Shown here: positions 28,421-39,463 of the stretch, one piece after another
Layout of the letters: the number at the start of each line of letters is the position of its first letter
Position numbering within the stretch: the first letter of the stretch is position 1
Virus record (IMG/VR): IMGVR_UViG_3300033490_000001
From: a virus
Length of the DNA stretch: 64,000 nt
Direction: 5' to 3' (one strand)
Program-made: the position numbers and the translations under genes
The notes under the pieces: model-generated
Databases searched by the model: none
What the model was told of the DNA's origin: nothing
Seen by the model: only the letters and a program-made list of their open reading frames with translations

Positions 28421-28901
28421 CGTTCATCACCTCCTGATGGAGATTCTTCACGAATCGCCGCAAATCCGCCTCGTCGGAAACTCTACCTTCCAAAATCTCG
28501 ATCTGCCAGCCATTCACAAGTAACCGCACGAGCGATTGTTCATATCGTTCTAGTGTCAGATAAAGCGGACTGATAAATCGCTTCGCAGCTGGCGAATATC
28601 CAATGTCGCACACCCTTTCACCATCCATCGTCGGCACGAGTGCCGCATAGAACTCCCACTCGTCATACGGCGCACGCGGATTCGTTATCCGCAAAATTCG
28701 CCCATCACGAAGAGATTTCGCAATGGATACAGCAGCCTTCGTCGCGTCCCTTATCAACGCCGATTGCGAAATCGGCACGACATAGGAAGGAGAAAAGTTC
28801 TCGACATGTTTTTCGCAACTGAAGCGCCATCGCTGCCCTTCTCGGACAAGATACTTCGCCTCGTCGCGATGGTCCCAATCGCAAATGAATTTCTCCATCA
28901 T
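28410..28901 (-). CDS. Cys/His-finger protein (paralog of 28001-28420)
   Basis: CDWDHRDEAKYLV...FSCEKH...SALIRDAT...LRDGRILRI. Confidence 0.6.
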   Translation of the reverse strand: MMEKFICDWDHRDEAKYLVREGQRWRFSCEKHVENFSPSYVVPISQSALIRDATKAAVSIAKSLRDGRILRITNPRAPYDEWEFYAALVPTMDGERVCDIGYSPAAKRFISPLYLTLERYEQSLVRLLVNGWQIEILEGRVSDEADLRRFVKNLHQEVMNDEV

Positions 28902-28924
28902 AATCACCTCCATCGTAGAAATTT

Positions 28925-28977
28925 CCGCATCGCGAGAATTTTGCGCGATGCGGTCTCAATCCCACAATGGTGCGATT
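28925..28977 (-). promoter_or_regulatory. Repeated early leader element, copy 1 (19-bp motif + hairpin + RBS)
   Basis: On - strand: AATCGCACCATTGTGGGAT, then a CCGCATCGCG/CGCGATGCGG hairpin, then GGAGGTG. Confidence 0.65.
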
Positions 28978-28982
28978 GCGAG

Positions 28983-29039
28983 AAAAAAAAGAAGAGAGCG
29001 CCGACAGCGCCCGTCGCTCTCTAAGACGCCATCGGCGCT
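28983..29039 (-). terminator. Terminator with alternative pairing
   Basis: AGAGAGCG/CGCTCTCT or AGCGCCGA/TCGGCGCT stems before T8 on the - strand. Confidence 0.7.
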
Positions 29040-29049
29040 TCCTTCGCGA

Positions 29050-29328
29050 TTAGTGTTCGTCGCAGTCACACCTAGTAAGAACAACGACCAGTCTGTGGTT
29101 CTCGGCAATCTTGACCGCTCCTGGATAGTTCGTTACTTGGTCAACTTCGCGAGCTGGACGAATTCGGAACTTGCCAACCTGCATCCGATACTCTTCTACG
29201 GTTCGGATGAATTCGCGTTCCGCAACTCTTTTCGGCAGCGGTCTGCTCTCACGAATTGGATACGCTTTGTCTTCGTGAACGCAGAAAACATCAACATGAA
29301 AGTGATACCGCTTCACTTCTTCCATCAT
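29050..29328 (-). CDS. Hypothetical early-region protein
   Basis: GGAGGTGG RBS. Confidence 0.6.
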   Translation of the reverse strand: MMEEVKRYHFHVDVFCVHEDKAYPIRESRPLPKRVAEREFIRTVEEYRMQVGKFRIRPAREVDQVTNYPGAVKIAENHRLVVVLTRCDCDEH

Positions 29329-29354
29329 ATTCTCCCACCTCCATTAAAGAATTC

Positions 29355-29406
29355 GCGCACCGCGCCCATTCTGCGAACGCGGTGCGCATCCCACATTGGT
29401 GCGATT
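29355..29406 (-). promoter_or_regulatory. Repeated early leader element, copy 2
   Basis: AATCGCACCAATGTGGGAT (18/19 identical to copy 1) plus a GCGCACCGCG/CGCGGTGCGC hairpin. Confidence 0.65.
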
Positions 29407-29458
29407 GCAGAACGAGCGGGCGCCAGCCTCTCAACGAAACCAGCGCCCGCTGAGTTCT

Positions 29459-29746
29459 CTAAGCATCCCGATGTCGCTTGAAGAAGTCTTTAGGTCTGCC
29501 TAATTCGGAAGACCAGCCAACTTCTATCATCTCAGCGATGTCGTCCTCAGTGATGACATTCTCGTAGATGAGAATCCACAGACCGTTCTCCATCCGCTCA
29601 AAGAGACGGTAGCGAATTTTCCCGCCCACCATCTTCGCAACACCTTTTCTTTCGGGAATTTTCACGCTGCGAAAAACGATGACTCGCCCTTCCTTCAAAA
29701 GCTCGAGAGCTCGCGTCCATCGCTGATACTGCCACTCAGTTAACAT
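29459..29746 (-). CDS. Hypothetical early-region protein
   Basis: RALELLKEGRVIVF; GGAGGTGA RBS. Confidence 0.6.
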   Translation of the reverse strand: MLTEWQYQRWTRALELLKEGRVIVFRSVKIPERKGVAKMVGGKIRYRLFERMENGLWILIYENVITEDDIAEMIEVGWSSELGRPKDFFKRHRDA

Positions 29747-29825
29747 CTCTCCTCACCTCCATCAGAATTTTTCGCACGGCTTTTAAATCCTCTCAAAATC
29801 CTCCATTCGCAACCCTTTGCGAACA

Positions 29826-29873
29826 AAAGAAAAAGAGCGCGACGGGCGAACCTTCTCTCAAAGCCCGTCGCGC
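29826..29873 (-). terminator. Rho-independent terminator
   Basis: 11-bp stem GCGCGACGGGC/GCCCGTCGCGC plus a T-rich tail on the - strand. Confidence 0.8.
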
Positions 29874-29883
29874 CCGAATCGCT

Positions 29884-30162
29884 TCAGAGATAGCGCTTCG
29901 CAATCTCAAGCGCTCCTTCGACGCCAAGACATTTCGCAGGGTCCTTTCTCGCGAACAAATCGCAACGAATCAAGACATCGCCATCGTAAACGCGAACGCG
30001 AATTCGTTGGACAGTGTTATTGCCAACTTCGTCCAGCGAATCTAACACCGTAGAAATGCGAACACTTCGCGTTCCCTTCGTCACCAAGTAATTGTCGCCA
30101 GAATACTCACGAATCTCAATGTCGCCAATGCGATAAATCCAACACCCATCACCGCGAACCAT
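29884..30162 (-). CDS. Hypothetical early-region protein
   Basis: GGAGGTGA RBS before ATG at 30162. Confidence 0.55.
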   Translation of the reverse strand: MVRGDGCWIYRIGDIEIREYSGDNYLVTKGTRSVRISTVLDSLDEVGNNTVQRIRVRVYDGDVLIRCDLFARKDPAKCLGVEGALEIAKRYL

Positions 30163-30358
30163 AACTCTCACCTCCATTCGCGAACATTCGCAAACGACGA
30201 ACTTCACGCTTCGCTTCTGCTTGAGAAATTTCCGCACCAAATTCACGCAACACCGCAATGAGAATCCAACCAATGAATTCCGCAAGAATTTCGTTTATCC
30301 GACGAATCACTTCAACTTCGCACAGAACCGCATCCTTCGCTACTTCCACCAACTTCAT
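30149..30358 (-). CDS. Small hypothetical protein
   Basis: GAGGTGA RBS before ATG at 30358. Confidence 0.5.
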   Translation of the reverse strand: MKLVEVAKDAVLCEVEVIRRINEILAEFIGWILIAVLREFGAEISQAEAKREVRRLRMFANGGESYGSR

Positions 30359-30363
30359 CTCTA

Positions 30364-31068
30364 TCACCTCTCCTTTCGTGGCAAGATTTCGTAAGCGTCG
30401 AACCATCGCTCGCCATCGGCAGAAATCTCAACCCTGAGACACCGCAGGCAGAATGGCGGAATGGATTTCACGAGGTCTTTCCAATCACGAATATCCACTT
30501 CGCATTCTTCAACTTCTCCATCTTTCCTGTAAACGCGAAGCATCGCAACCGACGGTCTCTCGCGAAGTAAGTCGGGCGTGAGAGTTACGCCCGACATTCG
30601 CTGAGATGGAAAAGCCAAAACCATCGTGCCTTCTGGACGAGAAACCACAACCGACTTCACTTCGTAACTGCGAACACGAACCGACGGCAATCTCTGAGCC
30701 AGCATCCTCTTCGTGCTCGGTCGACGACGAACAACAGTCTTTCTCAAATCCCAAACTGTCACCTCGTCGCCAGAGCGAACAACCGCAATCGTCTTCGTCC
30801 CACCAACAAATCTCACATCCATTGCGAAATTACCATCTGACCTGTTGAATTCTCTCTCCGCCATCCGCAGAATTTGTTCCCTGCGAAATTGGTCTAGCGT
30901 TTCCGCATCTACGAACTCATGCCTGACCAATTTCGCACGCTTCCGACTTGGAAGCGGCTTTTCGGGAAAGACCCGTCCGAGAATATCATGGATTTTCTCC
31001 TCGGTAAGACCAGCCGCCGATAACTCTTCGGCGAGATACCGCCGAAGAGCGTCCGCCGAGACTTTCAT
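30364..31068 (-). CDS. Hypothetical basic early protein
   Basis: GGAGG RBS before MKVSADAL. Confidence 0.65.
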   Translation of the reverse strand: MKVSADALRRYLAEELSAAGLTEEKIHDILGRVFPEKPLPSRKRAKLVRHEFVDAETLDQFRREQILRMAEREFNRSDGNFAMDVRFVGGTKTIAVVRSGDEVTVWDLRKTVVRRRPSTKRMLAQRLPSVRVRSYEVKSVVVSRPEGTMVLAFPSQRMSGVTLTPDLLRERPSVAMLRVYRKDGEVEECEVDIRDWKDLVKSIPPFCLRCLRVEISADGERWFDAYEILPRKER

Positions 31069-31160
31069 CGCTCTCGCCTCCTTCTCTGAGTTTTCTAATC
31101 TCATCCTTTCGCCGAGAATTCTCGGGCGCGGGCAAATTCACCCGCGCCCGAAGCGAACGC

Positions 31161-31442
31161 TTAGTCGAGAACGCGCCATTCGACGCCAGAACAAAGTAAG
31201 TTACCAATTTTGTGTTCGTCTAATGTCTCTACATTGTCTAAGAGAAGTTCGCCGTTTTCGCCGTTTTCGCCGTTTCTGTAATACAAGATTCTCACCTTAG
31301 GCGGCGATTTCTTCACGAGTGTCATTACTTCGCGATACTCCAAATTCAGATACTTCTTTCGGATGATGAATTCAATCGTTTTCCCTGCGTCCAACAACTT
31401 CAGAATTTGTTCGCGCTCCAAGACATACTGCGGATACGCCAT
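31161..31442 (-). CDS. Hypothetical early protein with NGE x3 repeat
   Basis: GGAGGG RBS; QILKLLDAGKTIEF resembles 29459-29746. Confidence 0.55.
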   Translation of the reverse strand: MAYPQYVLEREQILKLLDAGKTIEFIIRKKYLNLEYREVMTLVKKSPPKVRILYYRNGENGENGELLLDNVETLDEHKIGNLLCSGVEWRVLD

Positions 31443-31471
31443 CGCAATCCCTCCTTCGCACAAGATTTCTC

Positions 31472-31533
31472 CATCGCGGCGCAACTTGAGAAAAAACTCT
31501 CATCGCGCCGCGATATCCCACAATGGTGCGATT
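31472..31533 (-). promoter_or_regulatory. Repeated early leader element, copy 3
   Basis: AATCGCACCATTGTGGGAT identical to copy 1, followed by an ATCGCGGCGC/GCGCCGCGAT hairpin. Confidence 0.65.
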
Positions 31534-31559
31534 TCTGATTTCTTTTCTCAAGTTTCTTT

Positions 31560-32292
31560 TTCTTGGCTTGGACTTGGACTTGGACTTTTTTTTGGGCTTT
31601 GGGCTTTTGGGCTTTGACTTGGGCTTTGGGCTTTTGGGCTTTGGGCTTGGGCTTGACCTTTTGGGCTTTGGGCTTGGGCTTGGACTGGCTCACTTGGGAC
31701 TTGGGACTTTGGACTTGGCTTTGGGCTTGACTTGACCTTTGGGCTTGACTTTGGACTTGGGCTTTGGGCTTTTGACTTGACCTTTTTGGCTTTTGGGTTT
31801 TGGCTTGGCTTGACTTGGGCTTTGAACTTGGCTTGGCTTTAAATCAAACTTGGCTTGGGCTTGACTTGGCTTTTTTGTGGCTTGGGCTTGACTGGCTGGC
31901 TTGGCTTTGCCAGCCAGATAGGCTTTGGCTTGACTTTGACTTTGGCTTTGGGCTTTGTGGCTTGACTTTGGGCTTAACTGGCTCACTTGGCTTGGGCTTT
32001 TGACTTGACTTTGGGCTTGGGCTTTTGTGGCTTGGGCTTTGACTTGACTTGGCTTTGGGCTTGGCTTTTTGGCTTTGACTTGGCTTTGTAAGCCAAGCGA
32101 CCTACAAAGCCCAAATTGTCAATTTGCTTTGGCTTTGACTTTGACTTTTTTTGGCTTTTGACTTGGCTTGGCTTTTGACTTTGGCTTGGCTTTAGAACTT
32201 GGCTTTGAAAAATGCTTTGGCATAAACTTTTGAAAAAAAAGCCCAAGCCCAAACTTTGGGCTTGGGCTTGGCTTTGGGCTTGGCTTTGGCTT
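31560..32292. repeat. Low-complexity array of TTGGGC/TTGGCT/TTGACT/TTGGAC-type units (telomere-like, G4-capable)
   Basis: About 730 bp; + strand nearly devoid of A and CpG; many GGG tracts spaced by 3-5 nt. Confidence 0.95.
32233..32267 (-). terminator. Terminator built from the repeat vocabulary
   Basis: GCCCAAGCCCAAA-C-TTTGGGCTTGGGC perfect inverted repeat adjacent to A8 on + (T8 on -). Confidence 0.7.
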
Positions 32293-32848
32293 AGTCAAGT
32301 TTAGCCGCTGGCGCATTCTCGGGCTTCCTTGTGTTCCATGCCTGTGCCAAAGCCACAACTTCCGCATCCAACTTTGCCTGCGGGCTTGACCGCACAATCC
32401 TTGTCAAGATTGTCCCTACATACCACGAAAGTTTGGCTTTCTCATAATCCTTGACTTGGACTCCATACCGAGAAGCCAAGTCAAGGACCTTCGCCCATTC
32501 TGACCTTGACTTGGCTTCCGCCTGGGCTTGGGCTTGGGCTTGGACTGGCTCTTGGACTTGTGGCAAGTCAACCTGCCCTTCCACCCTAATTTGCCCATAC
32601 CTGCCATGACTTGCGTCCAATTGCCAAGTCCAACCCACTAAATTGCCCTCCTCGTCCTCCTTGATGGCAACTTGGACTTGGACTTGACTAAAGCCATCCT
32701 GCCATCCACCCAAAGCCAAAATTTGCCTAACAAATTGTGCAACCTGCGACTGAAGTGTAGCCTTCAACTCCGACCGCCTGATGACTTCCTCAATTTGCGC
32801 CTCACTAAGCCCTAAACTTTGCAACTCACCCTTCAACACTTCCAACAT
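32291..32848 (-). CDS. Hypothetical protein, first gene of the leftward early unit
   Basis: AAAGGAGGT RBS; 185 aa; codon usage strongly skewed to CAA/GTC/GCC/AAG. Confidence 0.8.
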   Translation of the reverse strand: MLEVLKGELQSLGLSEAQIEEVIRRSELKATLQSQVAQFVRQILALGGWQDGFSQVQVQVAIKEDEEGNLVGWTWQLDASHGRYGQIRVEGQVDLPQVQEPVQAQAQAQAEAKSRSEWAKVLDLASRYGVQVKDYEKAKLSWYVGTILTRIVRSSPQAKLDAEVVALAQAWNTRKPENAPAAKLD

Positions 32849-32987
32849 TTTGACCGACCTCCTTTACACTTAGAATTTCTGGCGCTCTATCTTAGCGCCG
32901 TTAACATTTTGCCCTATCCCAACGCCGATGCAACAGCCTCTGTAACCGCTTAGCGCACCTTTCTTTTCAGATTGCACGAAAGTGCTG

Positions 32988-33015
32988 TTTACTTTCGCTG
33001 AGAATCGGCTATAAT
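32988..33015 (+). promoter_or_regulatory. sigma70-type promoter of the GNAT-TGT operon
   Basis: TTTACT-16 nt-TATAAT, with CGGC immediately before the -10 box. Confidence 0.7.
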
Positions 33016-33079
33016 TTACTTTCGAGTAGCAAGCAAGCTTGTTCGGAAGCGTCGTTCCGAATTGGAGTGATATGAACCT

Positions 33080-33499
33080 ATGCGGTTCATTCGTGTCAAT
33101 GAAGCGATTGACAAGTATGGTGTAGATAGAAAGATTTTGTTGGCGTTAAAGCGGTTGGGATTTGTGGTGTTTCACGGGTTCAAGTATGTTGATGAAGAAG
33201 GTTTATCGCTGATTGTTGAGAATGAAGCGATAATGAGTGCAATTAGAGAAGTTTTAGAAAGTAAGCCTTATGTTTACTATGACCCAAAGCGGTTTCGTTC
33301 GCTTTTCAAGAAAGCGATGCTAAGGCGTGAAGGTTTGGTAGGGACAGGTGAGTTAGCGCGGATGTTTGGGCGAAGTTTCCAATGGGCGAACAACATAGCG
33401 CGTCGGAAGCTAAATTCCGTGAAGATTGGCAAAAGGCGGTTCATCAAGGTCGATGAAGTGTTCTTTGATTTCGTTGACAAGGAGATGATGAAACGGTGA
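33080..33499 (+). CDS. Tandem HTH (excisionase/MerR-like) regulator
   Basis: IRVNEAIDKYGVDRKIL and VGTGELARMFGRSFQWANN...SVKIGKRRFI. Confidence 0.7.
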   Translation: MRFIRVNEAIDKYGVDRKILLALKRLGFVVFHGFKYVDEEGLSLIVENEAIMSAIREVLESKPYVYYDPKRFRSLFKKAMLRREGLVGTGELARMFGRSFQWANNIARRKLNSVKIGKRRFIKVDEVFFDFVDKEMMKR

Positions 33500-33927
33500 A
33501 TGTTTTAGCTCGGATGGCTGAGATGGGTGATCTTGGCGAGATCAAGGAGATTGCTGATGAGTTTCGTGACGAACTTGGGTTTGTGTATGAAGCTGAGCTT
33601 GTTCGTGGCGTTCAGGATCGTAGTGTGATTGTTGCTGAAGTTGACGGAAAAGTTGTCGGGTTCAATTATTTTCGTTGCCGAAAGGACAGGAAAGCGGTGA
33701 TTTACGCTATTGCGGTAACTTCACAGTTTCAGCGGCGCGGGATAGGAAGGCTGTTGCTTAGGAAGTTCATTGATATTGCGCGACAGCGTGGGTGCGTGGA
33801 AGTTGAACTCAAGTGTCCTGCGATGCTGCTTGGTGCGAACATGTTTTACAAGCGCTGTGGTTTCAAGTTCTGTGGCATTGTAGATGGCAAGAAGCAGAAG
33901 CTTGTAATTTGGAAGCTCGTGATTTGA
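33496..33927 (+). CDS. GNAT-family N-acetyltransferase
   Basis: VVGF, IYAIAVTSQFQRRGIGRLLL (motif A), ANMFYKRCGF; GTGA-coupled to the HTH gene. Confidence 0.92.
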   Translation: MNVLARMAEMGDLGEIKEIADEFRDELGFVYEAELVRGVQDRSVIVAEVDGKVVGFNYFRCRKDRKAVIYAIAVTSQFQRRGIGRLLLRKFIDIARQRGCVEVELKCPAMLLGANMFYKRCGFKFCGIVDGKKQKLVIWKLVI

Positions 33928-33934
33928 TTGGCAA

Positions 33935-34912
33935 GTGATAGTTATGAAGTTCTACAATGGTTCATTCGACCATTTAAAGCGAGTATTTGTGCTGATGGGC
34001 AAGCTTGTGGAAGGTTATGGTGGCAAGGTTGAGGTCAATCCGTTTGAGAACATGATTGTTGCTCCGTTGTTTTATTACAGACCTATCTTGGAATTTTATC
34101 GGTGTTGGCGGTTTGGAGAGATTGGTTTGCCGCTGAGGTTAAGTTCTGTAATCATGGACAGTGGTGGCTATCAAGTGCAGACCGGCAAGATAAGTTTTGG
34201 TGCGTTGCAGGTTAGGTTGAGACGGATTTGGTTAGAGAACGATTGGGCCGATTTTTATGTTTTGCCAGACCATGTGCCGAAGACTTCAGATTTAGACTTT
34301 GAAGTCGAACGCAAGGTCAAGGACACGCTTGAAGCTGGCGAACGGTTCTTGAAATTTCTGCCCAAAGGTAAGGTTGCTATAGGTGTTGTTCATGGCAGGA
34401 ACTTGCTTCAGGTTCTCGGTTGTGTGCGCAGGTGGCAGAGGCTTGGTGTCAGGTATGTTGCGTTTGGAAGTTTTGGAACTTCCGGACCGTATGGCGGTGC
34501 GAATGTGATTTCGCAGCGTTCGTTGAAGCTTTTGAAAGCAGTTCACGATGAAGCGAGATCGTTTGGCATGGACTTACATGTATTCGGGATAAGTTACCCG
34601 TCTTATGTTCGGCTGATAGTTGAGAACGGAATTAACCCGACCTCGGTAGATAGCGTTGGCTGGTGGAAGGCTGCTCAGTATAAGCAAGTATTTTTTGATG
34701 GAGCGCCGCAACGGTGCATTTTCACGGCGCGAACTATTCAAAAGAGGGTGCTTAGTATTGATGAAATTGAATCCGAAAAGGCTAGAGTAGGGCACAGCTG
34801 TCCATTTTGCGCTCGTGCTGAGATGCTTGCTGACAAGTTCAACTTGGCGTTGCACAACTTGATTGTGACGGTTGACACAATCTCCAATCTGTGCTATGAT
34901 AGACGCGAATGA
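33935..34912 (+). CDS. tRNA-guanine transglycosylase-fold enzyme, DpdA-like candidate DNA 7-deazaguanine inserter
   Basis: IMDSGGYQ, LPDHVP, GVVHG, AFGSFG, LHVFG, VDSVGW (nucleophile Asp), HSCPFC...LHNL Zn site. Confidence 0.85.
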   Translation: MIVMKFYNGSFDHLKRVFVLMGKLVEGYGGKVEVNPFENMIVAPLFYYRPILEFYRCWRFGEIGLPLRLSSVIMDSGGYQVQTGKISFGALQVRLRRIWLENDWADFYVLPDHVPKTSDLDFEVERKVKDTLEAGERFLKFLPKGKVAIGVVHGRNLLQVLGCVRRWQRLGVRYVAFGSFGTSGPYGGANVISQRSLKLLKAVHDEARSFGMDLHVFGISYPSYVRLIVENGINPTSVDSVGWWKAAQYKQVFFDGAPQRCIFTARTIQKRVLSIDEIESEKARVGHSCPFCARAEMLADKFNLALHNLIVTVDTISNLCYDRRE

Positions 34913-34930
34913 AACTTAAAAGGAGTGTGA

Positions 34931-35695
34931 TTGGCGATGGAGATCAAAGTAGATGAGCGGTTGAAGGGTTTACTTGAGCCGTTGCAAGGTGAAGAGCTTG
35001 ATGTGCTTGTAGAAGACATTTCCAAGCGTGGCATTCAGAACCCGATAATTGTTGACCAGAACGGTTACATCATTGATGGGCACACGCGCTATCAGATCGC
35101 TCAGATTCTCGGCATCGAGAACATTCCAATCAAGCAAATTGAAGTTTCCGATGAGGACGAACGGCTTGAGCGGGCATTAGCGTTGAACTTGCAACGCAGA
35201 AAGCAAGTTCCGACAAAGCGTTTGAAAGAACTTGCGCTTGAGCTTCATTCTCGTGGCTGGGATGTAGATAGGATCGCGCGGGCGTTATCGGTTCGGAAAG
35301 AGACAGTAAAGCACTGGATCAATCCAGTTCCGCCAAAAGACGAGCCTCCCGAAGTCAAAGGTTTGATGCAGTATTGGGCTATTGGGTTTTTGGTGAAGAT
35401 TCAGGGCTGGCTTGTTGGTGCTGAGAACTCGTTTGTGCTGATAGACAGGCGTTCTGACATGGTTGTAGTTTGGTTCACCCGTGGTGAGCGAAGTTTTGAA
35501 ATTGAAGTTCGGCAAGTTGGGCGTGACGAATATGTGGTTCAAGAGTGGCTTGTGGGATCTGAGGGCGTTCGTGAGATGAAGGTTGCTGAATTTACTGGCA
35601 CGATGAACAAGTCGATTGCTTTCATGCTCAGCAGGTTGAACCTTCCATTTGTTGACCTTGACGAAATTACGCAAGCAAGTTCGGTTGCAGGTTGA
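34931..35695 (+). CDS. ParB/Srx-like N-terminal domain protein with HTH
   Basis: LLEPLQGEELDVLVEDI...GIQNPIIVD...IIDGHTRY; WDVDRIARALSVRKETV. Confidence 0.85.
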   Translation: MAMEIKVDERLKGLLEPLQGEELDVLVEDISKRGIQNPIIVDQNGYIIDGHTRYQIAQILGIENIPIKQIEVSDEDERLERALALNLQRRKQVPTKRLKELALELHSRGWDVDRIARALSVRKETVKHWINPVPPKDEPPEVKGLMQYWAIGFLVKIQGWLVGAENSFVLIDRRSDMVVVWFTRGERSFEIEVRQVGRDEYVVQEWLVGSEGVREMKVAEFTGTMNKSIAFMLSRLNLPFVDLDEITQASSVAG

Positions 35696-37961: not shown

Positions 37962-38912
37962 ATGGGAATTGTAAGGAGGGTGTTTAGGTTGCGGAAGCGT
38001 GAGATTCGCGTGATTGAAGATCAAATCTATGTCGAGCGTAGTCCTTTTGGCGTTCGGTTCAACATGAAGGTTTACTGTTCTCCTGCCTTTTATGCTGAGA
38101 ACAAGCAACTTCCGCTCCTTGCGTTTCCCGAAGGTTCGCTTCCACCGTTACTGAGGTTGTTTCCGTTGTCTCCAGTTAGGCTGAAAAGTGGAATTGAAGC
38201 GTACCTATTTGTTCGGCACGAAGATTTCTTCAAGGTTGTTCGTTCGACGAAATACAGGCGTGCTGACAGTTCCCTTCTGTCGACCATCTTAAATCTCAGG
38301 AAGCTGATGGTCATGAGCATTGACACTGACAAGCACAACCGAGCCCGTTGCCTTGTCTTTCCGTTCATGACTGACAAAGATTTCTGGGAAGCTTTCGGGC
38401 TTGAGTCTATCCCACCGATCGGTCAAGTTTTTGTTTACGTTTCGCATTACCCTCGTGAAAGGCAACTTAACTTTGTCGCTGCGACTTTACTGAACCATTT
38501 CGCGTTACTTTACTATCTCCTGAAGCATGATGAGAAGGAGTGGTTTATCGATGAGATAGCCAAGACAAAGAACTTGATCGAGTTTGCTCCATTCGTAGTT
38601 GAGAGCAAAGTCAGCCAGAACCATGTCTTCGTGCCTGAACCTATGTTCGCGCTCGCGTTAGTTACTGAATTTCCTGACCAAATACGCGAAATTGCCGCGA
38701 AATATCTTGCCAGCACCAAGGGTTTCGGACCGTCAGCTTGGTTTGCGTACTCTGGCATGGCTTACCGCAAACTTCTCAAATCGGCGTTTGCCATCACTGA
38801 CGAACAGGTTTTCGAAAGGTTCAAGAAGTTAGTTGCTGAACGGTTCTCGGGTGCTGAGTATGAAGTTGACCTTTCCAAAACCAACTACGGAGGTGTTTTG
38901 GCGGCATCGTAG
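37962..38912 (+). CDS. Hypothetical protein
   Basis: Long ORF downstream of a consensus promoter. Confidence 0.7.
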   Translation: MGIVRRVFRLRKREIRVIEDQIYVERSPFGVRFNMKVYCSPAFYAENKQLPLLAFPEGSLPPLLRLFPLSPVRLKSGIEAYLFVRHEDFFKVVRSTKYRRADSSLLSTILNLRKLMVMSIDTDKHNRARCLVFPFMTDKDFWEAFGLESIPPIGQVFVYVSHYPRERQLNFVAATLLNHFALLYYLLKHDEKEWFIDEIAKTKNLIEFAPFVVESKVSQNHVFVPEPMFALALVTEFPDQIREIAAKYLASTKGFGPSAWFAYSGMAYRKLLKSAFAITDEQVFERFKKLVAERFSGAEYEVDLSKTNYGGVLAAS

Positions 38913-38929
38913 GTGCTGCCAATCAAATC

Positions 38930-39463
38930 ATGAGGCGAAAATCGGTGACGGACGAGCGTTTTGAATCTGAAGAAGACATTCCGACGAAAAGCATATGGCG
39001 GCGAACGAAACTTTTCTGGCGTTCGTTGCCTGCTTGGCTTAGAGTTCAGTATGTTCGAGCGCTAAGGGAAGCTGCTTCACAAGTGGTTCGTAAGCTCCTT
39101 GAACATTTCAGTGATGCTAACATGCGGGATGTCGTGCAGATGTATTTGCTTGGAGCGTTCCTTGAAAAGTTCAGGCAATTACGAGAGTTCAACTTGAAGT
39201 CTGCGAAGATCAAGATTTCGCACCCTCTATTTACCTTGCACTCTAACGGTTTCTGGCTCGATGAGTTATACTTTCCCGAAGAGACCGTATGGCTCAGTAT
39301 GACCGTACCTAGGCGCATCTGGTGGTGGCTTGTTATGGACCCTGTAAAGCGAGCGAAGTTCTTTGAGTTCGTGAACGAGCTGTTCAAAGAAGACATTCCG
39401 GTTATCGAGATTTCAGACGGAGATGATGGCGATGCCGGTGTTGCCGATGGAAAGTCTTCCTGA
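38930..39463 (+). CDS. Hypothetical protein
   Basis: 177-aa ORF with RBS. Confidence 0.6.
   Translation: MRRKSVTDERFESEEDIPTKSIWRRTKLFWRSLPAWLRVQYVRALREAASQVVRKLLEHFSDANMRDVVQMYLLGAFLEKFRQLREFNLKSAKIKISHPLFTLHSNGFWLDELYFPEETVWLSMTVPRRIWWWLVMDPVKRAKFFEFVNELFKEDIPVIEISDGDDGDAGVADGKSS

Follow-up and report, generated by a model that had tools for sequence, protein, structure and literature searches.

A hypervariable repeat array retained between early genes of hot-spring phages is probably a cis-acting site

Background

Short repeats beside a gene for their binding protein are known from lambda O/ori, where the initiator gene is accompanied by iterons and further repeats lie within the stretch of the gene that encodes the linker. 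Iterons described to date are 7-22 bp long, have fixed spacing and occur in a few to about 20 copies; like centromere repeats, they have units of fixed length. Long low-complexity tracts reportedly fill the largest early-region gap of the Thermus phages P23-45 and P74-26, an account that goes back to Minakhin et al. in 2008. At the injection stop of phage T5 there is a 1.6-kb non-coding repeat region whose repeats are conserved in sequence and order, DnaA boxes included (doi 10.1101/866236). At the RNA level, Racrs described so far are short and have their promoter no more than ~250 bp away, and RacrIF1 owes its activity to the upstream RNA (Camara-Wilpert et al. 2023, PMC10651486). The present study examined a repeat array in the early region of a phage genome and its counterparts in relatives.

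Results and Discussion

Location, composition and unit structure

The stretch of DNA analysed (64 kb, hereafter the window) contains one low-complexity segment, a T/G-rich tract of 733 nt at 31560-32292 (T 298, G 219, C 131, A 85), and such a segment was likewise the only one in the examined stretches of the relatives L001 and L008. An earlier note on this DNA had pointed to the tract, and its character was confirmed by base counts, by Tandem Repeats Finder (overlapping periods of 5, 6, 7, 12, 18 and 27) and by 5-mer diversity, which falls to 37 distinct 5-mers per 150-nt window compared with a median of 133 across the 64 kb. The description of the + strand as nearly A-free proved too strong, since A accounts for 11.6% of the tract and for 5-9% only in 31550-31750. 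On the minus strand, which is the early-gene strand, the array lies between the intrinsic terminator of one early gene (gene A) and the leader of the next (gene B). Like the tract of P23-45, it fills the widest gap between genes of the early cluster, close to the divergence point. The features of the locus, in the direction of early transcription, are as follows.

32291 to 32848, minus strand: gene A, a 185-aa early protein of unknown function, from the ORF, its homologues and alignments
32229 to 32290, minus strand: a 3' trailer of repeat units, then the gene A intrinsic terminator (terminator scan: 14 pairs, 8 of them G-C, with a T-rich tail)
32210 to 32227, minus strand: post-terminator box GTTTATGCCAAAGCATTT (family consensus GTTTTTGMCAAAGCATTT), marking the 5' edge of the array
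32128 to 32209, minus strand: array part 1, AAGCC/AAGTC-type units, with 58-65% identical columns between relatives, with gaps
32082 to 32127, minus strand: conserved 46-bp island, a 15-bp perfect palindrome plus a hairpin
31560 to 32081, minus strand: array part 2, ~80 irregular units (AAGCCC, AAAGCC, AAGTC and similar), hypervariable between relatives
31977 to 31990, no strand assigned: punctuation motif, copy 1, a 14-mer reading CCAAGTGAGCCAGT on the minus strand
31892 to 31917, no strand assigned: polarity-flip hairpin in the array, CTGGCTGGC / GCCAGCCAG, with an 8-nt loop
31684 to 31697, no strand assigned: punctuation motif, copy 2, the same 14-mer
31621 to 31651, plus strand: the sole canonical G-quadruplex motif, in which loops of 3-5 nt separate five GGG tracts
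31515 to 31533, minus strand: 3' border of the array, a solitary CRISPR-repeat-like unit AATCGCACCATTGTGGGAT; downstream of it lie a GC hairpin, then a Shine-Dalgarno sequence, then gene B
31161 to 31442, minus strand: gene B, the next early gene (listed ORF 31161-31484; ATG at 31442 preceded by a Shine-Dalgarno sequence)

Across the whole array the units measure 5 nt (18 units), 6 nt (33), 7 nt (18) and 8 nt (8), with a mean of ~6 nt, and they are irregular, including homopolymer runs of varying length. Autocorrelation is lowest at lag 3 and blurs beyond two units, and the intermixing of units of 5, 6, 7 and 8 nt departs from the fixed length and regular spacing of iterons. The earlier note had also proposed a higher-order repeat of ~293 bp, based on an identical 14-mer at 31684 and 31977. 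Both copies are present and there is no further one; in long-range autocorrelation, however, a lag of 293 does not rank with the best, and the 14-mer is better described as a recurring punctuation motif, variants of which ([AG]TG[AG]AGCCAGT) occur twice in the L005 array and once in the L012 array, with the same word in the linker-coding part of gene A. An identification as a CRISPR array was rejected, as the 5-8-mers are contiguous and have no spacers between them. No DnaA boxes were found in the array, Rfam returned only sub-threshold matches for 30800-33300 and none at gathering score, and blastn in distant mode gave no match between 29000-35000 and phages.

Conservation and turnover among relatives

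A repeat array lies downstream of gene A at all 16 of the homologue loci for which downstream DNA was read, a set that ranges from an identical copy to remote homologues with profile E values of ~1e-17 to 1e-20 (4e-17, 5e-20) and that extends down to ~28% protein identity with the gene A of the window. Array lengths vary from ~100 to >1100 bp, as given by short-read assemblies in which repeats may be collapsed. The unit types are lineage-specific (for example AAGCC/AAGTC, AAGCGC, CATAGCGCCA, CACAGCG and GGCATGCC), and despite this turnover the sense strand is T-poor throughout. The differences among five near-identical relatives amount to one substitution and two indels, of 5 and 37 nt, while the repeats of relatives with 90% identical gene A proteins are not alignable; array part 2 shows 43-45% identical columns and 9-13 gaps, mostly of lengths that are not multiples of 3, between relatives whose gene A DNA is 74-90% identical. 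These comparisons show that unit sequence and length turn over rapidly through slippage-type indels and that position, polarity and the embedded unique sites are retained. The locus is a conserved module on the early-gene strand, running from gene A through the intrinsic terminator, the box and the array with its palindromes to the leader of the next early gene.

The terminator occupies the same place in all relatives, although its stem sequence differs in other lineages. In the window the stem, running from 32269 to 32239, is built of repeat units in direct and inverted orientation, with 15-nt arms that are 100% complementary and a T-run after the stem. The inverted repeats described in the earlier note are real, and lie at 32239-32253/32255-32269 and at 32082-32090/32103-32111. 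The latter pair forms the island hairpin (9-bp stem, 12-nt loop), which is made partly of polarity-flipped units and adjoins the perfect 15-bp palindrome at 32112-32126 (CAAATTGTCAATTTG on the + strand). All 46 bp of the island are identical in the window, L012 and L005, where gene A DNA is 74-90% identical; L013 has the full island, L007 has its first part, at which the L007 contig ends, and the core recurs as ATTGACAAT in L014 and as TTGACAATTG in L083. A search for the island in IMG/VR and the genome contigs gave no match. The post-terminator box is an imperfect palindrome around TTGNCAA that is unique in the 64-kb window; it was found at loci with gene A proteins 46-100% identical to that of the window and is recognisable in L014 and L083. 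Its 24 matches in IMG/VR fall in unrelated, mostly AT-rich contigs, a number judged to be about chance level. Box and island are far better conserved than the repeats.

One potential explanation for the turnover is a neutral, self-perpetuating microsatellite, in which slippage-prone units were seeded from the low-complexity gene A linker or trailer into a tolerated gap at a mosaic boundary, where they would grow and shrink without serving any function. The indels between near-identical relatives, the unalignable repeats beside closely similar proteins, the irregular units and the variable homopolymer runs are all consistent with this origin, as is the presence of the same units in the gene A linker, 3' trailer and terminator stem. 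The array is also the break point of many relatives' contigs, and the downstream gene varies by lineage: gene B, which from the ATG at 31442 begins MAYPQYV... and is called as 93 aa in L018, has homologues downstream of the array in L005, L012, L014 and L018, with other genes there in L001, L010 and L083. However, arrays of unrelated unit types at all 16 loci would require repeated re-seeding at one spot or long retention, the phage genomes are otherwise compact, the T-poor sense strand persists through unit turnover, and strictly conserved unique sites lie within the array. A neutral microsatellite is considered rather unlikely.

Coding potential

The earlier note had raised the possibility of coupled small genes for basic DNA-binding peptides, rich in K, P, Q and S, on the minus strand. 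The three ORFs (31983-32252, 31690-31986 and 31400-31693; 89-98 aa) are joined by GTGA stop/start overlaps as described, and the junction motif recurs in relatives. However, none of the ORFs has a Shine-Dalgarno sequence, in contrast to the genuine early genes of this region, and relatives whose neighbouring protein is 71-90% identical have not kept them. The counterpart at this position in L014 has 24-29 stops in every sense frame, and in L005 the ORF starting at the conserved junction motif ends after 8 codons. The first ORF begins within the terminator stem and the third crosses the leader of the next gene into gene B. The 5- and 37-nt indels between near-identical relatives, the gaps in part 2 and the mixture of 5-8-nt units likewise disregard a reading frame. 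The ORFs are a consequence of the T-poor strand, which leaves all three frames open, about equally so in AAGCC-type and AAGCGC-type arrays; the earlier note had itself called them weak evidence. Pfam gave no match for four array ORFs. Comparison of the sequences thus shows that the array is not translated; peptide genes are highly improbable, and annotation pipelines that call K/P/Q/S-rich ORFs here, such as those of 116 aa in L003 and of 57 aa in L005, are best regarded as reporting artefacts.

G-quadruplex and telomere-like structure

The motif at 31621-31651 has the five GGG tracts reported earlier (starts at 31621, 31628, 31636, 31643 and 31649) and conforms to the G-quadruplex definition of at least four tracts of three or more G separated by 1-7 nt. 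In all, 28-31 GGG tracts occur on the + strand of this array. Among the 13 relatives scored, however, none has a G3-type motif, so that the canonical motif is confined to the window phage; GGG tracts number zero in the L001-L004/L008 lineage and the partial L007 array, and one each in L009, L010, L011 and L014. The comparison with a telomere is not supported: the tract is internal in two assembled records, lying >30 kb from both window ends and ~33 kb into a second public record, a contig of 72 kb whose array is identical. Structural DNA of a telomere-like or G-quadruplex-forming kind is extremely improbable. Of the earlier proposal, the general class of a cis-acting DNA element is upheld by the conservation of position, polarity and embedded sites, while its telomere and G-quadruplex framing is not.

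A DNA barrier near a genome end

A structural element that halts or pauses DNA entry near the leading genome end would have analogues in the triplex tracts of P23-45/P74-26 and in the T5 injection stop, itself within a 1.6-kb non-coding repeat region. The genome of P23-45 is laid out in the same way, with early genes running leftward, then a divergence point, a ParB-like gene and terminase. The widest of its gaps (848 bp, gp68-gp69) contains a 125-nt pyrimidine tract and CTAGC(GC) repeats at the same relative position, and the genes by its divergence point are at the physical left end and thought to enter first. The array also falls within a GATC-free zone of 5029 bp (window average, 3.9 GATC per kb), which would fit first-entering DNA. 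On the other hand, the longest purine/pyrimidine runs in the 14 arrays scored are 4-12 nt, so H-DNA is not predicted in any of them; G-quadruplex motifs are not conserved; and the repeats of the window family are hypervariable, unlike those of T5, which keep both sequence and order. Contig breaks in the divergent region had been considered as a physical genome end, a candidate rejected since their positions are scattered and resemble strain-mosaic breaks. For the two window proteins compared with the whole P23-45 record no homologue was found there, and tblastn of all window ORFs of at least 90 aa against L047-L049 and the first 45 kb of P23-45 gave no matches. A barrier function appears distinctly unlikely.

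Readings at the RNA level

It could also be that the array acts as RNA, insulating the first early unit from the units that follow: read-through from gene A would enter an untranslated, U-poor zone with more C than G that loads Rho or another RNA-dependent terminator. On the sense strand, C minus G ranges from +0.03 to +0.15 across the 14 arrays scored, with G-rich flanking genes, and the arrays have no Shine-Dalgarno sequences or conserved ORFs and the same polarity at every locus. Sense RNA is structure-poor in 7 of the 10 arrays folded, the AAGCC-type folding at -0.14 to -0.24 kcal/nt compared with -0.25 to -0.39 for gene A. The exceptions, L001, L008 and L014, are structured like coding RNA (-0.31 to -0.34 kcal/nt), however, and the C/G ratio is just 1.1 in the L001 lineage, with G slightly exceeding C in L084. 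A strong intrinsic terminator already stands upstream, Rho loading needs just 80-100 nt while arrays reach >1.1 kb, and no such zone is seen at other early-gene junctions. The DxDxD signature of a P23-45-style RNA polymerase is absent from the 2458-aa tape-measure protein, and the stricter motif D[FYLIVMA]D[GANST]D had no match in window ORFs of at least 300 aa. Taken together, an RNA insulator is unlikely.

The 3' border of the array raises another RNA-level explanation. The border motif has three copies in the window, compared with 0.03 expected, and its 18-mer is the exact core of 30-nt CRISPR repeats in hot-spring MAGs. The copy at 28976 matches the repeat of Ca. Thermosaccharophagus at 28 of 30 nt, and the motif agrees with host-type CRISPR repeats over 18-28 of 30 nt, in sense orientation, with identity to Armatimonadota repeats (the repeat of one Armatimonadota system is GTCGCAATCGCACCATTGTGGGATTGAAAC) reaching 28 of 30 nt. 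Judged by sequence, the motif bounding the array, previously read as an early promoter, is a CRISPR-repeat mimic in the same orientation and outside any CRISPR array, as expected of a solitary repeat unit, and it links the early region to a putative CRISPR conflict with Armatimonadota- or Bacteroidia-type systems. The 349 spacers examined from CRISPR arrays gave only 15-nt chance matches to the phage and its relatives, and host CRISPR leaders were compared with the array and rejected as a likeness, showing no resemblance.

Array and mimic could form one transcript, a candidate giant RNA anti-CRISPR that titrates the host CRISPR machinery, with Cas6 docking on the mimic and the RNA upstream of it coated by Cas7-type backbone subunits, each covering 6 nt. 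The array ends ~10-35 nt before the mimic at all nine loci that show both, oriented as in CRISPR transcription; the mean unit length is also ~6 nt; and the inhibitory part of RacrIF1 is the RNA upstream of the Cas6 cut, bearing an extended Cas7 filament. In such a sponge the unit sequence would be irrelevant and length would add capacity, which fits the observed turnover and, if true, would explain why length and polarity are kept while unit sequence drifts. However, a strong terminator stands upstream, no promoter was found from there to the array (a sigma-70-type scan of the minus strand from terminator to gene B found none), and the mimic precedes every early gene and may itself be the promoter. 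The remote relative L084 has an array but no mimic, sense RNA is not structure-poor in three lineages, and the absence of any match among the 349 spacers leaves the link to a host unproven. A sponge of this kind is quite improbable.

A platform for protein assembly beside gene A

The array is thus probably a cis-acting site rather than a telomere or G-quadruplex element or a series of peptide genes. A non-coding array of 0.1-1.1 kb that every relative examined keeps in a compact phage genome points to a function in cis, and the array is tied to an uncharacterised early protein family. The reading we favour, tentatively and as a possibility among several, is a platform on which a phage protein assembles, paired with gene A in the manner of an origin with iterons. 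The linkage of array and gene A at all 16 loci, with lineage-specific units, is consistent with such a pairing, although gene A has no recognised DNA-binding fold. In its protein the N-terminal half is variable, a low-complexity, Q/A-rich linker follows, and the helical domain at the C-terminus is conserved; the linker is encoded by array-type repeat units, with a 24-nt exact word common to 32528-32551 and array positions 31668-31691. Neither Pfam nor PHROG gave a match. The AlphaFold model (pLDDT 75) yielded no significant PDB match and no recognisable DNA-binding fold in structure searches, with a best Foldseek E of 0.065 and a best VIA-align Z of 5.6, which is within the noise range. For gene A, tblastn against phages found no match and an atlas look-up no usable one, and single-protein and profile scans of IMG/VR with gene A and a TGT-like gene returned nothing.

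The most economical candidate for the protein assembling on the array would be the gene A product itself. Its variable N-terminal half may read the lineage-specific units while the conserved C-terminal half contacts a conserved partner, and the embedded palindromes could serve as nucleation sites. It is important to note that the irregular 5-8-nt spacing is ill-suited to an ordered, cooperative protein filament, and that co-variation of the units with the N-terminal domain is, in the few lineages available, inseparable from shared descent. Within the platform class an origin-like function is favoured, doubtful as it is, because the array adjoins the switch of gene orientation and of GC skew: the divergence point, where cumulative GC skew is minimal, lies 0.6-1.5 kb away. 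The skew minimum falls where gene orientation switches and so says little about an origin, while the distance of the replication genes (DnaB-like helicase, primase), 13-25 kb from the array, and the lack of DnaA boxes count against one. If gene A and the array do form an initiator-origin pair, the origin would be of an unusual, microsatellite-like kind and would offer a handle on replication in uncultured hot-spring phages.

Comparison with known systems

The locus resembles that of P23-45, a hot-spring siphovirus of ~80 kb, in the order of early genes, divergence point, ParB-like gene and packaging genes, and in having, among the early genes and a few kb away from that point, an ~850-bp gap in which strand-asymmetric repeats take up the space and variation is concentrated. 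The P23-45 tract, however, is a pure pyrimidine/purine mirror repeat with triplex-capable runs of 25-49 nt, whereas the array described here has mixed 5-8-mers whose longest purine/pyrimidine run is 12 nt, short of the ~20 nt with mirror symmetry required for H-DNA; the resemblance is one of architecture and not of homology. Compared with the T5 injection stop, the repeats of the window family are hypervariable and without DnaA boxes. The array-edge motif recalls the Racrs in matching host-type CRISPR repeats in sense orientation, but it differs in heading every early gene leader and in being preceded, at the array, by a terminator and 0.1-1.1 kb of repeats. Compared with iterons and centromeres, the window family has ~20-130 irregular units of 5-13 nt and no AT-rich unwinding element, and gene A is without a recognised DNA-binding fold. 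The features shared with that group (lambda O/ori, plasmid Rep/iterons, the omega heptads of pSM19035 and ParR parC) are an array adjoining a small early gene, lineage-specific repeats in which direct and inverted units are mixed, and a protein whose N-terminal half varies while the half beyond the linker is conserved, with repeat units also present in the linker-coding DNA.

Repeat array and its setting

The window, a metagenomic contig of phage type, encodes helicase, primase, ligase-methylase, capsid and tail proteins (gene A, an early gene of no assigned function, occurs on contigs of up to 80.9 kb), and its gene orientation switches at ~32.9 kb, from the minus strand on the left to the plus strand on the right. 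The repeat array at 31560-32292 is the sole low-complexity segment of the 64-kb window (minimum 37 distinct 5-mers per 150 nt versus a median of 133); its short units are of mixed length (5, 6, 7 and 8 nt), and TRF gave overlapping periods of 5, 6, 7, 12, 18 and 27. An earlier note on this DNA called the plus strand nearly A-free, which overstates the composition of a T/G-rich strand (T 41%, G 30%, C 18%, A 12%). The note's five-GGG motif at 31621-31651, 14-mer at 31684 and 31977, GTGA junctions between minus-strand ORFs and two inverted repeats are all present, and autocorrelation of the array showed its 293-bp higher-order repeat to be absent.

Features of the array locus, all on the minus (early-gene, sense) strand
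32291-32848: gene A (185 aa), with the array 3' of its stop codon
Between gene A stop and terminator: a few repeat units, the first element after gene A
32269 to 32239: strong intrinsic terminator with T-run, its stem itself composed of repeat units
32210-32227: post-terminator box, 18 bp, unique in the window
Between box and island: first repeat block, ~80 bp
32082-32127: island of 46 bp, comprising a perfect palindrome (15 bp) and a hairpin (9-bp stem)
Between island and CRISPR-repeat mimic: second repeat block, ~520 bp
31533 to 31515: motif AATCGCACCATTGTGGGAT, the 3' border of the array, then a GC hairpin and a Shine-Dalgarno sequence
31442: ATG of the next early gene, 3' of the Shine-Dalgarno sequence

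GATC is absent over 28500-33529 (5029 bp, covering the early genes, array and divergence point), against a window mean of 3.9 GATC per kb and a second-longest GATC-free gap of 1291 bp; within 31.5-32.5 kb, palindromes of 4 and 6 bp are underrepresented as well. In the divergent control region between gene A and a 139-aa gene (32849-33080 in the window, with its counterpart in L001-L021), long stretches are nearly the same in lineages with a gene A protein identity of only ~50%. Numerous short contigs start at scattered points within this region, a pattern resembling breaks in a strain-mosaic assembly and not a genome end.

Conservation of the array among relatives

Gene A homologues were found in hot-spring metagenomes, and the DNA downstream of gene A was read in 16 loci. 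These comprise L018, a second public record with an identical array, possibly derived from the same sample; closer relatives, with gene A protein identities of 90, 79, 71, 54, 52, 50, 46 and 40%; and two remote homologues (profile E 5e-20 and 4e-17). Gene A is followed by a terminator and a tandem array in 16/16 loci, then by the next gene's leader where the contig extends. From terminator T-run to next leader motif (or contig end), the 14 closer loci measure 318-1157 bp (one contig, L011, ends within the array after 871 bp), and the repeats proper span ~100-200 bp in the two remote homologues, lengths that are possibly collapsed because all sequences are metagenome assemblies, most of them short-read. 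Array position is kept despite lineage-specific units, and the strongest new fact is that such an array always accompanies gene A on its downstream side.

Typical repeat units by lineage
Window, L012, L013, L005, L007, L009: AAGCC(C), AAGTC(C/A)
L001 group, L010, L011: AAGCGC, AAAGCA(C), AAGTCA
L014: (CA)nTAGCGCCA, 8-14 nt
L083 (remote): CACAGCG(CC)
L084 (remote): units containing GGCATGCC

Also kept are the post-terminator box, a palindrome core of TTGACAAT type, occasional polarity flips that form palindromes, and the polarity itself, with 7-19% T on the sense strand and C exceeding G in 14/14 loci scored, against a G-rich coding background. The C excess is consistent with the array being an RNA-level insulator, a reading of low probability; however, the sense RNA is structure-poor in some lineages only, and a strong terminator already lies upstream.

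The telomere-like, G-quadruplex reading of the earlier note does not hold: the canonical motif occurs once in the window and in 0/13 relatives scored, GGG tracts are absent from whole lineages, and the tract is internal in two records. An H-DNA tract was likewise rejected, the longest purine or pyrimidine run being 12 nt in the 14 arrays scored.

The array is non-coding

The minus-strand ORFs had also been read as coupled genes for small basic peptides, but the array is non-coding. AAGCC- and AAGCGC-type arrays are about equally open in all three sense frames because a T is almost always followed by C, and the L014 array has 24-29 stops in each frame. Unit length varies, and among all autocorrelation lags, lag 3 scores lowest. 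The ORFs are without Shine-Dalgarno sequences; one begins in the terminator stem, one crosses the next gene's leader, and in L005 the ORF from the conserved junction motif ends after 8 codons. Four array ORFs had no Pfam match. In a relative with gene A DNA 90% identical, the aligned repeats agree in only 45% of columns and need 13 gaps, 8 of which are not multiples of three, while the 46-bp island is 100% identical. Among five near-identical sequences the differences come down to one substitution, a 37-nt indel and a 5-nt indel that two independent assemblies show. This indel spectrum fits a neutral microsatellite, which the array may be, although retention in every locus despite unrelated unit types and the conserved sites embedded in the array fit such an origin poorly.

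Public gene calls within arrays (L003 925-1275, 116 aa; L005 4131-4304, 57 aa; L014 950-1453, 167 aa; one on the opposite strand) are almost certainly spurious, products of low-complexity DNA that is poor in stops.

A CRISPR-repeat mimic borders the array

A 30-nt CRISPR repeat that forms long arrays in MAGs from hot springs (Bacteroidia SKW77 and KatS3mg025, bacterium HR23, Armatimonadota Bin S17, Ca. Thermosaccharophagus) has the conserved early-leader motif ATCGCACCAWTGTGGGAT as its core, and this identity of the motif bounding the repeat array changes the context of that array. The CRISPR arrays in the Bacteroidia, Armatimonadota and HR23 MAGs have 61-71-bp periods and up to 114 copies per fetched stretch. 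The motif also occurs in L001, L005, L010, L012, L014, L048, L049 and L083.

Copies of the early-leader motif in the window
31515-31532, minus
29388-29405, minus
28959-28976, minus

Phage copies match 18-28 of the 30 nt in sense orientation (the copy at 28976 is 28/30 nt identical to the Ca. Thermosaccharophagus repeat), and each early gene has one between hairpin/terminator and leader hairpin. On this match and placement the copies are classed as solitary repeat units, candidate RNA anti-CRISPRs or repeat-derived promoters; of 349 CRISPR spacers tested, none matched the phage. Solitary repeat units have been demonstrated as RNA anti-CRISPRs, in which inhibition comes from the RNA 5' of the Cas6 cleavage site, where each Cas7 subunit of the coat covers 6 nt (PMC10651486). 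Because of this likeness, array and mimic might, speculatively, form a giant Cas7 sponge, but this is very improbable given the terminator upstream of the array, the lack of a recognizable promoter, and the L084 array, which has no mimic.

Two IMG/VR contigs, L047 and L048, carry the CRISPR-repeat-like motif, yet their fetched parts have no protein similarity to the window. Both have strand-asymmetric arrays near gene starts (L048 11700-12060, ~10-nt units of TTTGTGAGGTT type; L047 1-230, ~9-10-nt units of AAAACCGCC type), and three repeats at 66-bp spacing form a mini CRISPR array at the end of L047.

Comparison with known systems

Less probably, the array is a structural barrier or entry-pause element, in view of its place within the 5-kb GATC-free zone and the strikingly similar layout of Thermus phage P23-45, in which the physical left end holds the early genes beside the divergence point. 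The largest intergenic gap of P23-45, 848 bp in the early region (38116-38964), holds a pyrimidine tract and many CTAGCGC/TAGCGCTA words, similar to the L014 array units TAGCGCC/TAGCGCTA. However, no non-B structure is common to the arrays.

Ranked first, if tentatively, is a cis-acting protein-binding platform, probably for the gene A product, which would be the candidate to assemble on it, and possibly origin-like. Against this ranking stand the irregular spacing of the units, the absence of a recognized DNA-binding fold in gene A, a co-variation of units and gene A that is indistinguishable from shared descent, and a GC-skew signal that gene orientation confounds. The ranking rests on the adjacency of the array to the orientation and GC-skew switches and on a likeness to initiator-iteron pairs. 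In lambda O and ori, a type-specific N-terminal domain binds repeats within the gene's linker-coding segment, and in pairs of this type the C-terminal domain contacts the helicase loader. In gene A, a Q/A/S-rich linker joins a variable N-terminal half (a long helix and three-stranded sheet) to a helical C-terminal domain that is conserved. As in lambda, repeats lie in its linker-coding DNA, which consists of array-type units and has an exact 24-nt word in common with the array (32528-32551 and 31668-31691); the longest word shared by gene A and array is also in the linker-coding region in L012, L005 and L010.
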